Positions 3,019 through 14,504 of a DNA stretch of 14,504 nucleotides are shown here, in pieces; the first letter of the stretch is position 1, and every line of letters begins with the position of its first letter. The notes under the pieces are model-generated. The model did no database searches. It was given only the letters and a program-made list of their open reading frames with translations, and had not been told where the DNA came from. Source of the DNA: Escherichia phage Bf23; sequence record NC_042564.1; one strand, 5' to 3'. The position numbers and the translations under genes were made by a program.

Positions 3019-3132
3019 AATTGAAAACTCGCAGGGTTAGCGAAACCATCCTCAATTAGCATGTTCTAGAATACTAATCAAGTTATCTCCTATTGCACGC
3101 AGCTCAAGACGAGTACGAATTTTCAATTGTGG
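3015..3132 (-). ncRNA. candidate structured RNA / precursor-processing stem flanking the 5' end of tRNA-His
   Basis: 17-nt inverted repeat ccacaattgaaaactcg (3015-3031) vs cgaattttcaattgtgg (3116-3132), one mismatch, enclosing 84 nt with no credible ORF; the first arm includes the first 4 nt of tRNA-His. Confidence 0.3.
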
Positions 3133-3247
3133 CGGCTCTCAGAAACTCTTCTATTCTAGCCCCAGAAGCTTACCCCCGAACGCCTGTCGGGAAAGTCTTT
3201 CCAAGAGCATCAAATAGCACCGTTACACTTTGAGCCATTGATATATC

Positions 3248-3332
3248 AAGGAACAGAAGGATTTGAACCTTCACGAGATAGACCATTTATCTCAACCGCT
3301 TTTAAGGTATATTTCTAGGAGTGGATGTTCCT
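3248..3332 (-). tRNA. tRNA-like gene, class II length (85 nt), isotype undetermined (possible Leu-TAA) or pseudogene
   Basis: perfect T-arm gaagg/atttgaa/ccttc and perfect 7-bp acceptor (3249-3255/3326-3332) but no canonical anticodon stem; CCA not encoded; contains hairpin agata/gaccatt/tatct. Confidence 0.35.
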
Positions 3333-3386
3333 AGTAAACCTATTCGGCAGTCCCGTCTACCAATTCCGGCATATTCCAAGAATTTT

Positions 3387-3670: not shown

Positions 3671-3677
3671 ATTTGTT

Positions 3678-3768
3678 TGGCGGAAGAGGAGAGATTTGAA
3701 CTCTCAAGCCGTTTTACCAGTCAGCCACTTTCCAAGCGGTTTTCGTCGCCAATTCGATTTGCTCTTCC
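3678..3768 (-). tRNA. tRNA-Ser (anticodon GGA), tentative
   Basis: 91 nt class II; encoded CCA, G73; perfect T-arm gagag/atttgaa/ctctc; perfect acceptor 3682-3688/3762-3768; anticodon loop TTGGAAA with one mismatch in stem; 3-bp D-stem. Confidence 0.5.
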
Positions 3769-3801: not shown

Positions 3802-3880
3802 GTTACGCCTCGCTGGGATTCGAACCCATTAAAACAGCTCAACCGAGATAGTAGGTTTAATTTACTCTGACCATCAAATT
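3802..3880 (-). other. orphan T-arm-like element (degenerate tRNA remnant?)
   Basis: tggg/attcgaa/ccca T-arm-like hairpin at 3814-3828 but no pairing partner for an acceptor stem and no anticodon arm. Confidence 0.25.
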
Positions 3881-5285: not shown

Positions 5286-5316
5286 TTAATTTTTGTTAAC
5301 TCACTTTATAAAATAT

Positions 5317-5345
5317 ATTATACAGATAATTAAGCATAATAGCAA
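5317..5345 (-). promoter_or_regulatory. sigma70 promoter (T5 early-promoter-like)
   Basis: minus strand TTGCTA (revcomp 5340-5345) - 17 nt - TATAAT (revcomp 5317-5322); conserved flanking motif cagataattaagca / aatgaatttttaa. Confidence 0.7.
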
Positions 5346-5372
5346 ATGAATTTTTAATAAATTTACTTATTG

Positions 5373-5472
5373 TGTAGGCCACCTGGGGGCTATCAACCCC
5401 ACGGCTGACAAAGAAGTTTGCGAGACTTCTCTTAAAAGCCAGAATAGACCCGCCGATCTATCGGAACCTACA
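5373..5472 (-). ncRNA. tRNA-like cloverleaf element (about 100 nt), noncanonical; strand uncertain
   Basis: outer stem tgtagg(5373-5378)/cctaca(5467-5472) enclosing three hairpins: ggggg/cccc (5385-5400), agaagt/acttct with 7-nt loop (5412-5430), ccga/tcgg (5453-5464); no TTCGA T-loop, no CCA. Confidence 0.3.
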
Positions 5473-5620
5473 TAATAAGTAAACTTTCGTTTACTTACAC
5501 CTACTTGGTCAGGAGGATTTTCAGCGACTAGAACCGGCCGGAAACTTATCGCCTTGTTTTACTACCACCTTACGGACGCACAAGTTGTTACACGAATGCG
5601 CAAGCTCGGTTTGGTAGATT

Positions 5621-9872: not shown

Positions 9873-9950
9873 TGGTGGCTCCCCGAGGATTCGAACCTAC
9901 GTACCTTCCAGTTATGAGCTGGGTGCTCATACCATATGAGCTTGAGAACC
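9873..9950 (-). tRNA. tRNA with anticodon CAT (Met, initiator or Ile2 type)
   Basis: encoded CCA, acceptor 9877-9883/9944-9950 with two G-U, D-arm gctc/gagc, anticodon loop CTCATAA; T-stem has only 3 good pairs. Confidence 0.5.
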
Positions 9951-10059: not shown

Positions 10060-10088
10060 ATTATATTAGAAATTTAGCTTCATAGCAA
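10060..10088 (-). promoter_or_regulatory. sigma70 promoter (T5 early-promoter-like), inside 3' end of CDS 10066-10584
   Basis: minus strand TTGCTA (revcomp 10083-10088) - 17 nt - TATAAT (revcomp 10060-10065); A-run upstream. Confidence 0.65.
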
Positions 10089-10584
10089 GAAAATTTTTCA
10101 AGTTTTCGGTAGACATCTCATCCACATCTACAGGGGAAACAAACCCATTTAACTGTCTAGCAAACTTTTCGCCAGCAGGATCATTATCCCCAACAGCTAC
10201 CAATTTAAAAGGTAGTAATTTCAATTGCTTTAATAGCGCTTTTCCTGGAGAAGAACCCAACATTGCCAGGGCTGGATAACCAGCGTTATGTAACGCAACT
10301 GCCTTAAATACAGATTCAGCAATCAATACTACTTTTTCATCTCCATTGAGAGTTTCTAGTCCCCATACACACTGTGTAGTAGAATAAGTAAAATATCTAG
10401 CCTCAAAGGGGCACTTACCATGACCTTTTGGAGCAGAAGGATTATAAGTCTGATAGCCTCTCAACATCCCAGAGAAGTCATACAATGGGACTGTTAGCCA
10501 TCCTTCCGGGCTTAACCAGCAATGATATTTATCTGTATCAAATCCTCTAGATAAGAGATGTTCTGTTAGTTCATCAACAGTCAT
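10066..10584 (-). CDS. Toprim-domain protein (DnaG/OLD/RNase M5-type fold), 172 aa
   Basis: ORF track 10066-10635; ATG at 10582-10584 has GAGAGAGGAA SD and lies downstream of the promoter start, whereas the ORF-track ATG at 10635 lies within the promoter; motifs VVLIAESVFKAVALHNAGYPALAMLGS and LVAVGDNDPAGEKF (conserved Glu and DxD). Confidence 0.7.
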   Translation of the reverse strand: MTVDELTEHLLSRGFDTDKYHCWLSPEGWLTVPLYDFSGMLRGYQTYNPSAPKGHGKCPFEARYFTYSTTQCVWGLETLNGDEKVVLIAESVFKAVALHNAGYPALAMLGSSPGKALLKQLKLLPFKLVAVGDNDPAGEKFARQLNGFVSPVDVDEMSTENLKNFLAMKLNF

Positions 10585-10614
10585 ATTAGATTCCTCTCTC
10601 AAATTTATAAATAT

Positions 10615-10643
10615 ATTATACAGAGAATTTAGCATTCAAGCAA
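10615..10643 (-). promoter_or_regulatory. sigma70 promoter closely resembling classic coliphage T5 early promoters
   Basis: minus strand reads aaaaaattcaaTTGCTTgaatgctaaattctctgTATAATatatttataaatttgagagaggaa; as I recall it, T5 PN25 shares TTGCTT -35, CTGTATAAT, and the initial transcribed motif ATAAATTTGAGAGAGGA. Confidence 0.8.
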
Positions 10644-11852: not shown

Positions 11853-12269
11853 ATGAGTAAATATGGTTTTGTAAACAACGGATTTAATCAACAAATGGGC
11901 TCCCAGCAGCCCGTTCCTGGTCTGGATAATCCTTACCTACAACAGTTGCAACAGCATTTAGCAGAAGCGCAACAGATGCAGCAACAACTCCAGCAAAACC
12001 CTGGAAGTGTGAGTCCTATGCAAATGATGCAGCAAATGAGCGGGCAGTCGCAAATGCCTCAACAAATGCAGCAACAGGTGCCTCAGCAGCAAGTTCAGCA
12101 ACAAACCCAACAACCGCAGGTTTCTGCGGAAGGACAGGCAGTACTAGCCCTTTTCGAAGATTTCGCAAAGACAGAGGATGGGAAACAGCTTGTATCACTT
12201 ATGGGTAAGTTTAATAGCTTCTGCCAAAGCCAAGTTGCAAAAGCTCAAAATGGTGGTAATAACTCCTAA
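11853..12269 (+). CDS. hypothetical Gln-rich (prion-like composition) protein, 138 aa
   Basis: ORF track; ATG with GGGGAGGAG SD; 21 nt after the stop of the upstream gene; long Q/M/P-rich tract then short structured C-terminus. Confidence 0.65.
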   Translation: MSKYGFVNNGFNQQMGSQQPVPGLDNPYLQQLQQHLAEAQQMQQQLQQNPGSVSPMQMMQQMSGQSQMPQQMQQQVPQQQVQQQTQQPQVSAEGQAVLALFEDFAKTEDGKQLVSLMGKFNSFCQSQVAKAQNGGNNS

Positions 12270-12593: not shown

Positions 12594-13541
12594 TTACTTG
12601 TTACGCATATCCATAATCATCTGGCCATCGTAACCAGTGCCAACTACTGTTTGCGGTACACCACCTTGATATTTCTGAGCACGAATCATTTCAACTTCTA
12701 GTTGTTTCCAACGAATCATCTCAGGAGTAATAGTACGTTGCAGAGCGGCGTTAGCTTCAGCTTCTTTCTTAGCTGCGTACAGTTTAGCATCTGCATCACG
12801 TTCGTTTGCAATAGCTTGGTTGTTACGAGCTTCACGATCTGCTTCTGCTTGTTTAACCTTCTGCTGTGCTTCTTGTTCAACACGAGCCAATTCAGCTTTC
12901 GCAGCATTAACTTGTTCTTCACGAACTTTGGTATTCTGTACCTGTTCCATAATTACCGGTGGCAATGTAATATCCTGAAGGAACACTTGCTTAACTGTGT
13001 AACCATAAGGGCGTGCGTACTCTTCAACTTCCTGCTGAATTGCAGTTTGCAATTGTGCTTGAATTTTAGCATCAAACAAATCTTGTGCTTTAGGTACAGA
13101 CTTACCAAACTCACGAATAGTAGATAGTAATTTCTCAGTTACATACTTATCTAGAGCCTGATCCTGGGTGCCTGCGTTAATACGGTTAATCGGTGCCTTA
13201 GAACCATCAAATTGTAACATAACAGTCAGGTCAACAGTGGATTTAAACTTATCCTGGCTAGGAACCTGAAGTTTATCTAATTTTACAGCAATATCTTTTG
13301 TACTAAAAGTATCGAAAGATGCAAATGGGTTTACAAGATGGAAACCAGGTAATACTGGGTTAGGATCTACTTTACCTAGAAATGTTTGGGTTTTAACCGT
13401 ACCATCAGAAACAATAGTATATGAATTAAAAGCTAGGATTAAACCTGCTAAACCAACTACAGCACCAATACCCCAACGTTTAATAGTGCGAATTACTTTT
13501 TGCTCAGAAGTCAGTTCTTTCATATTTTTAGTATTAAACAT
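12594..13541 (-). CDS. SPFH/band-7 (stomatin/prohibitin/HflK-HflC-like) membrane protein, 315 aa
   Basis: ORF track; ATG with AAGGAA SD; N-terminal transmembrane helix (WGIGAVVGLAGLILAF), SPFH-like core, C-terminal Ala/Glu/Gln-rich coiled coil. Confidence 0.8.
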   Translation of the reverse strand: MFNTKNMKELTSEQKVIRTIKRWGIGAVVGLAGLILAFNSYTIVSDGTVKTQTFLGKVDPNPVLPGFHLVNPFASFDTFSTKDIAVKLDKLQVPSQDKFKSTVDLTVMLQFDGSKAPINRINAGTQDQALDKYVTEKLLSTIREFGKSVPKAQDLFDAKIQAQLQTAIQQEVEEYARPYGYTVKQVFLQDITLPPVIMEQVQNTKVREEQVNAAKAELARVEQEAQQKVKQAEADREARNNQAIANERDADAKLYAAKKEAEANAALQRTITPEMIRWKQLEVEMIRAQKYQGGVPQTVVGTGYDGQMIMDMRNK

Positions 13542-13575
13542 ATATTTCCTTTGTTTTAGTTACAGTTAATAAAAT

Positions 13576-13650
13576 TGGCCGAGGTGACAGGATTCGAACC
13601 TGCATAAAGGAATTTAGAAGACTCCTGCCTCTCCCTTAGACTACACCCCG
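13576..13650 (-). tRNA. tRNA-Arg (anticodon TCT), tentative
   Basis: encoded CCA, T-arm acagg/attcgaa/cctgc, acceptor 13580-13586/13644-13650 with G-U, anticodon loop CTTCTAA with G-U in stem; D-arm poorly defined. Confidence 0.5.
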
Positions 13651-14152
13651 TTTAAGTATTTTTAAGAACTCTCGTAAAAACTCTTAAAAATACAGACGAT
13701 ACCGGGAGAGTCATAAGTCTCACTCATTAAGTATTTCAAGACAAAATACAGTAACGTCTATTATTTTCCAGTTTAAGTCAAGGTGACTTAGTGGTTATGT
13801 CCTGCGGTATGCTGAGGACTCGGTTAGGCTAGGGTCATGACTCCCCACCTTTTTGCTGCTACTCAACAGGAGTTATCGCGAATTACCTGTGCTATTGTGC
13901 ACCATTAGTGGCATCTCTCATGCCAGCATTTCCCACTTTGTGGATAGTTTGAAAAACTACTCCGATATGGAGAAAGAACTTCACTATCCTAGAATACCTT
14001 CTAAAGTTCTTCTTTAGCCTGGACATAGTTAAATCGTAATAAAACTATTCAGCAGACTGGTTGGTTAGTCTGGAACCAACTACCGCGTGGTTTAGGCAGT
14101 GCGCAACTAACCTCGGAAGCTTTTACGTTAAAAGCATCAGTTATCCAGTTCT

Positions 14153-14224
14153 TACCGTCCGTAGGATTCGAACCTACATCTTCCACCAGTTACGGCTTGA
14201 TAATACCAATTATACTAGGACGGC
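14153..14224 (-). tRNA. tRNA-like gene, isotype undetermined (possible pseudogene)
   Basis: perfect T-arm gtagg/attcgaa/cctac (14161-14177) and 6-7 bp acceptor pairing (14154-14160/14218-14224) but no recognizable anticodon stem; CCA not encoded. Confidence 0.35.
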
Positions 14225-14447
14225 AGTGTTACTACATAAGTGATTTCCACACCCCACTATTTATAAATTAGAGAAGAGTTTAGGGGAGAGGTTTCAGACG
14301 CCCCATTTTATACGTTCTAGCCACTAACCGGGATTGCCGCCCCCTGTGTACTAGTTTTACAACTAACCCACCGACTCTATTCAGTGCACTCCGGTTGGGA
14401 TTCTGCACTCAGCGTAATCGGCTCGCTGTTCCCTAATTTATGAATAT

Positions 14448-14476
14448 ATTATACAGAATTTATAAGCATTTAGCAA
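14448..14476 (-). promoter_or_regulatory. sigma70 promoter (T5 early-promoter-like)
   Basis: minus strand TTGCTA (revcomp 14471-14476) - 17 nt - TATAAT (revcomp 14448-14453); conserved motif cagaatttataagca / aatgaatttttag. Confidence 0.7.
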
Positions 14477-14504
14477 ATGAATTTTTAGAAAAATTCACTA
14501 GCAG

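Follow-up and report, generated by a model that had tools for sequence, protein, structure and literature searches.

RNAX of T5-like phages: a structured non-coding RNA bounded by tRNA-type elements, seen through its orthologue in phage Bf23

The tRNA island of T5, a classical model phage, was recently shown to counter bacterial defences via tRNA-Tyr and Rad. The tRNA region of T5 also carries eight annotated 'stable RNAs'. One of these, RNAX, extends from promoter P16-17 to tRNA-Arg and is entered in GenBank (AY543070; misc_RNA rnaX/RNAX, complement 40848..41566, 719 nt) as a 'stable RNA with unknown functions'; the annotation recurs in the NC_005859 and DT57C records. Here we describe a 500-base stretch of Escherichia phage Bf23 (NC_042564.1; positions 13651–14150, minus strand) that, judged by sequence and position, is the body of the RNAX orthologue, that is, its 3′ 500 nt. 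The stretch lies in a 14,504-nt piece of DNA, the whole of which was analysed (hereafter the window) and which belongs to a T5-like phage (Demerecviridae, Tequintavirus; 441 records matching by megablast). Compared with T5, the 501-nt stretch is 92.8% identical over 100% of its length, and the T5 match lies under misc_RNA rnaX. RNAX itself is already known from the GenBank annotation, where its function is given as unknown. To this we add evidence that the fold is conserved, a domain map, the description of a non-decoding tRNA-like element, and a link to the T5 st0 deletion. A literature search found no paper on the structure or function of RNAX or the other T5 stable RNAs.

The remaining T5 stable RNAs (RNAI, RNAIII, RNAIV, RNA1, RNA2, RNA2H and RNA3) resemble RNAX in that they are non-coding, lie among tRNA genes, are co-transcribed and are presumably excised by tRNA enzymes. 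However, they are 70–170 nt long, compared with 500–800 nt for RNAX. The species 1 and 2 RNAs of phage T4 (rnaC and rnaD) are analogous non-coding RNAs among phage tRNA genes. Elements shaped like tRNAs can also punctuate longer transcripts: mascRNA at the 3′ end of MALAT1 and tRNA-linked spacer RNAs are tRNA-like elements cut by tRNA-processing enzymes. RNAX likewise has a non-decoding, tRNA-shaped element at the boundary of a long non-coding RNA, although its processing is a prediction here and the systems are evolutionarily unrelated.

The closest parallels in size and setting are ROOL and GOLLD, which are phage or prophage RNAs often found by tRNA islands and held in oligomers by conserved symmetric kissing loops; in GOLLD the 3′ part is conserved and the 5′ part varies, and tRNAs are sometimes embedded (PMC12286853). 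RNAX shares with both that it is phage-encoded, neighbours a tRNA island (23–24 tRNA genes here), is several hundred nucleotides long and is many-helixed. It differs in that its sequence and secondary structure are unrelated and its carriers are lytic siphoviruses of enterobacteria. Rfam 15 was searched with the whole window at the gathering threshold and, at E ≤ 10, with positions 13500–14504 (both strands) and six relatives. The ROOL and GOLLD models had no match at either level, which excludes RNAX from membership in these families. Apart from chance-level hits, tRNA was the only family matched.

Covarying helices and invariant loops

The central domain of RNAX is a real structured RNA, the helices of which are kept by compensatory changes. 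A seed alignment of 14 sequences (A3) was built on a hand-drawn structure, with the T5, Pantoea, Yersinia, YZU-L1 and Klebsiella types left out. In this seed, 96.7% of cells are paired, compared with ∼40% when the partners are slid, and six pairs change on both sides. A covariance model (R1) built from the seed was then run over 76 sources (531 kb). R1 matches full-length in every T5-like lineage, including those outside the seed, with scores of 128 bits for T5, 87 for Pantoea, 27–37 for the YZU-L1/26175II types, about 25 for Klebsiella and 16 for Yersinia. It has no match in T4-like or ∼90-kb phages that carry the SPFH gene only, nor in chance-match contigs, and neither an R1 match nor an RNAX motif was found elsewhere in the window. 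A second alignment (A4) comprises 28 distinct sequences from the R1 matches, fitted to the model. Here, 94.4% of cells are paired (26–43% in slid controls), 21 of 28 pairs change on both sides, and none of 500 shuffles reaches the observed values. All five pairs of helix H3 change on both sides. The compensatory substitutions expected of a structured non-coding RNA are found in A4 and in A3 alike. An initial annotation of this DNA, made from the sequence alone, had pointed to a hairpin at 13797–13819, which is H3, and had named comparative structure prediction as a check; the helices do covary far above controls. Folding of the whole stretch against shuffles gives z = −2.7 on the minus strand and −1.8 on the plus strand.

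The alignments show short invariant single-stranded motifs borne on helices that vary in sequence and keep their complementarity. The invariant loops and junctions are GAUAACU (twice), AGUCAUGA, CCGA, AUAACCAC, AACUGGA (twice) and UUAAU. AACUGGA lies in the H4 region (13767–13773) and directly 3′ of the tRNA-like element (14144–14150), and AACTGGA is mildly enriched in the window (six observed versus 2.2 expected). The stem under the AGUCAUGA loop of H2 occurs as AGGCU/AGCCU, AGACU/AGUCU or GUGAC/GUCAC. AGUCAUGACC is identical in all homologues recovered and occurs only once in the window. The H2 loop is the candidate for contacts, be they with a partner or between copies of RNAX. Three further pairings were considered and set aside. 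The closing helix UGCUG/CAGCA and the hairpin GUGC/GCAC of the central domain are not conserved in T5, L020, L026 or Pantoea and were left out of the model; a long-range pairing of GGGGAGUCAU with AUGACUCUCCC, suggested by the single-sequence fold, was dropped because the Epseptimavirus and Klebsiella versions lack the partner.

Outside the central domain, hairpin HA of the 5′ sub-domain occurs in five complementary versions (GCUUUU/AAAAGC, GCUUC/GAAGC, GCUUAU/AUAAGC, GGUUC/GAACC and GGUUA/UAACC). In Stitch and the Klebsiella phages, the entire 5′ sub-domain is replaced by other modules. At the 3′ side, at least four unrelated sequence versions (window/T5, Epseptimavirus, two Klebsiella types and Pantoea) form one three-way junction topology. 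All of them retain (C)UUAAU in the junction, and the junction arms covary (e.g., ACGGAAGG/CCUACCGU versus CAGUAGUG/CGCUACUG). The terminal hairpin is predicted in all versions and is almost invariant in sequence, with one compensatory U-A to C-G change in a Klebsiella type. It remains with RNAX where an open reading frame (ORF) intervenes before tRNA-Arg, and it is possibly a site for a double-strand-specific nuclease or a structure that protects the 3′ end.

RNAX is modular. The segments at ∼13650–13790, 13790–13940 and 13943–14150 are kept or replaced independently, and helical modules are exchanged among phages with the architecture retained. Insertions occur in the RNAX of YZU-L1, the Klebsiella phages and T5; in some phages HNH endonuclease ORFs lie at either edge, never within the conserved core. 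The insertion in T5 (L003 3139–3225), also present in L026, is a ∼87-nt hairpin flanked by a direct duplication of a 23-nt motif, AGUCACCUUGAC.UAAACUGGAA, which includes AACUGGA. It has the look of a small insertion that duplicated its target, or of a repeated unit.

A distant BLAST search with the RNAX stretch matched 502 records, and the Klebsiella version as query matched 524; the hosts of the carriers include Escherichia, Salmonella, Shigella, Citrobacter, Klebsiella, Yersinia and Pantoea. On these counts, over 500 genomes of T5-like phages have a conserved RNAX, and essentially all natural ones keep it. Proteus phage PM135 (Novosibvirus) has the YqeY-like gene that neighbours RNAX elsewhere (see below) and tRNA-Arg, with no convincing RNAX match, and a bacterial genome collection held no relative of the YqeY-like gene. 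A scan of IMG/VR gave only 10 loci, and a metagenome scan gave 15, nine of which are chance matches. Given the PM135 and bacterial negatives, RNAX appears confined to T5-like phages of enterobacteria. In PM135, the interval from the YqeY-like gene to tRNA-Arg (L084 3424–4237) is an ORF-poor gap of ∼800 nt with no match to the model, which may hold an unrelated or very diverged RNA. The same interval in Yersinia phage phiR2-01 (L079 480–2097) is ∼1.6 kb without an annotated feature; it holds a tRNA-like element, RNA motifs and an unannotated ORF of 186 amino acids (aa) at 1576–2136.

Table 1. Mapped features of the RNAX transcription unit in the Bf23 window, in 5′ to 3′ order of the RNA; all lie on the minus strand
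Feature	Position	Remarks
Sigma-70-type early promoter	14448–14476	TTGCTA, 17 nt, TATAAT; 10/12 matches in promoter scan
Variable 5′ leader	14226–14441	ORF-free here, relatively G+C-rich, outside conserved core
tRNA-like element	14152–14225	ARAGORN 'Ser(act)'; Rfam tRNA 39.6 bits (gathering score 29)
Body of T5 RNAX orthologue	13651–14150	Between tRNA-like element and tRNA-Arg(UCU)
5′ sub-domain	13939–14151	GAUAACU, HA, conserved stem, GGAUAGU/ACUAUCC module
Invariant GAUAACU	14145–14139	From alignments
Hairpin HA	14135–14119	Covaries across lineages
Conserved stem gttggtt/aaccaac	arms about 14060–14066 / 14074–14080	Paired in 7/7 variants
Competing stem cagact/agtctg	arms about 14053–14058 / 14067–14072	Tequintavirus-type sequences only
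AAGAACUU/AAGUUCUU plus GGAUAGU/ACUAUCC module	about 14015–13943	In 5′ sub-domain
Central conserved domain, 150 nt	13789–13938	Covariance model R1, alignments A3 and A4
P1	GUGG 13936–13933 with CCAC 13794–13791	Hand-drawn structure
H0	13925–13909	Hand-drawn structure
H1	13890–13866	Conserved loop UAAUUCGCGAUAACU
H2	13850–13826	Invariant loop AGUCAUGA; CCGA linker next
Invariant 8-nt H2 loop AGUCAUGA	13835–13842	Includes palindrome UCAUGA
H3	13819–13799	After CCGA linker; the hairpin noted initially
AUAACCAC	13798–13791	3′ of H3
Hairpin H4 and AAACUGGAA	13766–13789	AAGUCA-CCU-UGACUU; near-invariant in alignments
3′ three-way junction	13694–13759	Outer stem 13759–13755 with 13698–13694, hairpin a, UUAAU junction, hairpin b
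Terminal AU-rich hairpin, ∼17 bp	13656–13693	5 nt upstream of tRNA-Arg; no U-tract; not called terminator
tRNA-Arg(UCU)	13576–13650	ARAGORN, Rfam 49.3 bits, CCA encoded

Transcription unit and tRNA-like element

ARAGORN finds 23 tRNA genes in the window, with a 24th called by Rfam; all 23 lie on the minus strand. On this strand, the RNAX transcription unit comprises the promoter, the leader, the tRNA-like element, the 500-nt body, tRNA-Arg and an SPFH gene, which carries a Band_7 domain. The arrangement is that of T5 RNAX, with P16-17 upstream, tRNA-Arg(UCU) and the SPFH gene downstream, and the YqeY-like gene before the promoter. The two loci differ in that T5 has the extra ∼87-nt hairpin and lacks ∼150 nt of the leader (about 14281–14429). 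The same gene order is found in Epseptimavirus, Yersinia and Pantoea phages. Klebsiella phages differ upstream, where they have an endolysin gene and no annotated YqeY-like gene.

The promoter is the orthologue of T5 P16-17, which is annotated at the equivalent place, and its predicted transcription start is near 14441. It belongs to a family of T5-type early promoter repeats with seven copies in the window (D1), and its hexamers are identical in the Pantoea phage. The leader folds no better than shuffled sequences (z = −0.33) and contains a weak terminator-like hairpin at 14386–14369. In JLBYU43, S147 and mar003J3, an HNH endonuclease ORF occupies the leader position.

The tRNA-like element scores as a cloverleaf with the Rfam tRNA model in relatives as well (29–38 bits), and its acceptor and T arms are conserved in all lineages (29–40 bits). 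Its anticodon arm is degenerate, with sequence, length, pairing and loop size specific to each lineage. No canonical anticodon is kept: the called anticodon shifts among phages from act to tca (SeC), cga (Ser) or aga (Ser), or is undetermined. CCA is encoded in all 22 genuine tRNAs of the window and is absent only from the tRNA-like element, which is followed by AAGAACUGG. An invariant AAGAACUGGAUAACU stands directly 3′ of the element. Given its variable anticodon arm and missing CCA, the element does not function as a decoding tRNA. What has been kept is the portion that tRNA-processing enzymes recognise, and the element probably serves to direct processing, fixing the 5′ end of the RNA body.

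Readings of the RNAX locus

We favour, with a probability of roughly 0.6, the reading that RNAX is a long (about 0.5–0.8 kb), modular, folded non-coding early RNA that is excised by tRNA processing and acts in trans via its invariant loops. The strong sigma-70 early promoter would produce a single minus-strand precursor running from the promoter through the SPFH gene. Flanking tRNA-type structures would then serve as punctuation, at which host tRNA-processing enzymes free the body as a stable RNA. Cleavage by RNase P is a well-established step of tRNA maturation, and such a cut at the 5′ end of tRNA-Arg would set the 3′ limit of RNAX. Downstream of the tRNA-like element, the cut would fall to a 3′-end tRNA nuclease or to RNase E, with RNase III perhaps acting at the terminal hairpin. 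The freed RNAX would act as a trans scaffold, the invariant single-stranded loops of which could attach to a protein, to a different RNA or to a second RNAX molecule. We conjecture that RNAX confers a conditional advantage in natural hosts, as do the neighbouring phage tRNAs and the Rad gene, and that basic replication would proceed without it. The initial annotation had proposed one or more phage small RNAs and left the transcribed strand (minus) unstated. That the stretch specifies a phage RNA is borne out by its correspondence to RNAX and by its covarying helices; the picture is rather that of one long modular RNA bounded by tRNA-type elements.

A deletion mutant bears on how far the phage needs this RNA. 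In T5 st0 (AY692264; L083 2501–2680), the deletion has an endpoint inside the YqeY-like gene, which is joined to the region beside tRNA-Asp. The deletion takes out RNAX, tRNA-Arg, the SPFH gene, Rad and several tRNAs, and the phage is viable. The join of the truncated gene to the tRNA-Asp region means that the whole RNA is absent from a viable phage. Viability of st0, set against near-universal retention in nature, is the pattern of an accessory, condition-dependent function; RNAX is an accessory element, dispensable in the laboratory. Two other mutants, T5n and SP15m, each with a ∼8-kb deletion in the tRNA-rich region, are viable and more retron-sensitive (PMC11555353). Their sensitivity was traced to tRNA-Tyr and ORF75/Rad, not to RNAX (PMC11555353; preprint 10.1101/2023.03.15.532788).

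Several points weigh against a trans-acting, processed RNA. The 'stable RNA' status of RNAX comes from the GenBank note, for which a literature search found no paper or RNA-seq data. A4 was fitted to the model, and its pairing is hence inflated; the A3 seed and the anchor-based tables are independent of model fitting but cover fewer lineages. P1 never varies and the loops are invariant, so both are beyond the reach of covariation. The Klebsiella and Yersinia model scores are weak (16–26 bits), and homology there is mainly a matter of synteny and of motifs held in common. Finally, such extensive swapping of modules could also reflect an RNA that can be replaced over much of its length.

The alternatives fare worse on comparison across phages. 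The initial annotation had seen two mutually exclusive hairpins at 14051–14084 and suggested an attenuator or riboswitch-like switch; with the exclusive hairpins at 14053–14080 as its two states, read-through into tRNA-Arg and the SPFH gene would depend on which of them forms. Both stems do exist in the window, and the RNA does lie upstream of tRNA-Arg and the SPFH gene within one transcription unit. The stems interleave as A-B-A′-B′ with connecting loops of 1, 0 and 1 nt, which by established pseudoknot geometry means that they cannot coexist in this sequence. However, a comparison of seven distinct variants finds only one stem conserved. The gttggtt/aaccaac stem is 100% paired, with one compensatory G-C to A-U change, whereas cagact/agtctg is paired in 73.8% of cells and broken in three of the seven variants (S147, YZU-L1 and 26175II); five of its six pairs lose pairing somewhere, and there is no compensatory change. 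The module is wholly absent from Stitch and the Klebsiella phages, and the stems are ∼400 nt upstream of the next gene. A terminator scan of the minus strand of 13651–14150 found neither a terminator-like site nor an expression platform, and the terminal hairpin lacks a U-tract. Rfam yielded tRNA and chance-level matches only, with no aptamer, riboswitch or leader family. Several phages also have an extra ORF between RNAX and tRNA-Arg, which is a poor fit to cis-control of one downstream gene. With one competing stem conserved and the other not, the switch, attenuator or riboswitch reading fails; comparison has largely refuted it already, and we regard it as very improbable. Thus the structured phage RNA of the initial annotation holds up and the switch does not. 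We give hardly any credence to the proposal, implicit in GenBank records with up to five 'hypothetical proteins' here, that the stretch encodes one or more small proteins. ORFs are called here in several records, but most records annotate nothing. The sole minus-strand ORF (45 aa) matches one PHROG family, PHROG 19105; its start lies within the T arm of the tRNA-like element, and its frame is interrupted by stops in six lineages (JLBYU43, YZU-L1, Stitch, L013, the Klebsiella phages and Pantoea), so that the PHROG family reflects repeated over-annotation. The longest plus-strand ORFs in 13651–14150 (54 and 60 aa) are antisense to the transcription unit, with its promoter, and to all 23 tRNAs, and no plus-strand ORF of the stretch has a PHROG match. 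The stretch is non-coding, in keeping with the initial view that it holds no credible gene. We also rejected the idea that GGAG..AUG of the invariant loop marks a mini-ORF, since neither the ORF length nor the Shine-Dalgarno-like stretch is conserved.

It is also possible, though unlikely, that the stretch is a largely non-functional spacer made of decayed tRNA genes, gene remnants and recombination junctions, with its motifs conserved as DNA (homing-endonuclease targets or recombination boundaries). The HNH endonuclease ORFs inserted at both edges in several phages, the sharp boundaries of the module swaps, the duplicated 23-nt motif around the T5 insertion, the degenerate tRNA-like element and the viability of st0 are all consistent with such an origin. 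Nonetheless, no tRNA-like match lies inside 13651–14150 (ARAGORN; Rfam, even at E ≤ 10), and the RNA is retained in essentially all ∼500 natural genomes. Compensatory changes in at least five helices go beyond DNA-level recognition and, together with module replacement in which differing sequences give the same three-way junction fold, render a DNA-level or junk reading inadequate. Were RNAX only a processed spacer, its practical value would be smaller: annotators would drop the hypothetical proteins here, and the 'tRNA-Ser/SeC/OTHER' call would be better treated as a tRNA-like element. Equally doubtful is a self-assembling 'ornate' RNA, in which the palindromic UCAUGA loop and other invariant loops form kissing-loop dimers or oligomers. 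An invariant loop on a variable stem and the 6-nt palindrome read within AGUCAUGA would suit this idea, as would the features shared with GOLLD and ROOL, namely the setting in a phage tRNA island, a 3′ part that is conserved where the 5′ part varies, and a tRNA-type element within (PMC12286853). On the other hand, the ROOL and GOLLD models do not match, a 6-nt palindrome would arise in an 8-nt loop by chance at ∼5% by our own estimate, and the invariance of the loop makes palindrome-to-palindrome covariation unobservable. By analogy, the palindrome may serve as a lead for self-association.

The results turn an RNA of 'unknown function', listed in GenBank ever since the annotation of the T5 genome and with no Rfam family, into a testable object that is conserved in phages of at least five enterobacterial genera, has covarying helices and invariant loops, and is dispensable in the laboratory. 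For the biology of enterobacterial phages, RNAX is a tractable match to ROOL and GOLLD where genetics is easy, and its interest would be higher if it proves to assemble or to counter host defence. More speculatively, RNAX may represent a new class of large phage 'ornate' RNA in parallel to ROOL and GOLLD, cut from a tRNA precursor, self-associating via its invariant palindromic loop or capturing a host factor, and protecting the phage translation supply in natural hosts; we put this forward tentatively, as a rather unlikely case. The host factors could be ribosomes, tRNA-modifying or tRNA-cleaving enzymes, or a defence nuclease. If true, the T5 tRNA island would not only supply tRNAs but would also counter defences by means of RNA.

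Neighbouring genes and other features of the window

The gene upstream of the RNAX promoter (window 14485 onward, minus strand; L001 2485–2919) carries varied labels, including 'tRNA amidotransferase', 'GatB domain', 'YqeY-like' and 'recombination related exonuclease'. Its Pfam YqeY score of 20.8 bits is below the cutoff of 27. The product of the YqeY-like gene, encoded beside a tRNA-like RNA, would have a putative domain of the tRNA-binding type. Downstream, the SPFH gene has homologues with 75–80% amino-acid identity in ∼90-kb and 140–180-kb phages without RNAX (L061–L073), which suggests that it has been transferred horizontally on its own.

Elsewhere on the minus strand, a 189-aa ORF with a Toprim-like domain (10066–10635) matches in length and domain Rad/ORF75, the anti-retron protein of SP15 (preprint 10.1101/2023.03.15.532788); its T5 equivalent is annotated T5.076. 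The 24th tRNA (9876–9950, minus strand; Rfam 38.2 bits), missed by ARAGORN, has T5 tRNA-Ile2(CAU) as its counterpart. Two ORF-free gaps among the minus-strand tRNA genes (3019–3386 and about 5286–5520) are the positional counterparts of T5 RNAIII/RNAI/RNA1 and RNAIV/RNA2. Extra T-arm-like sequences that are not called tRNAs also occur (2232–2271, 3672–3702 and 3813–3828). No RNAX motif is shared with the other ORF-free tRNA gaps of the window. Finally, short tandem-like repeats (GCAACAGATGCAGCAA and variants) lie at 11940–12076 on the plus strand, inside a 138-aa ORF (11853–12269).

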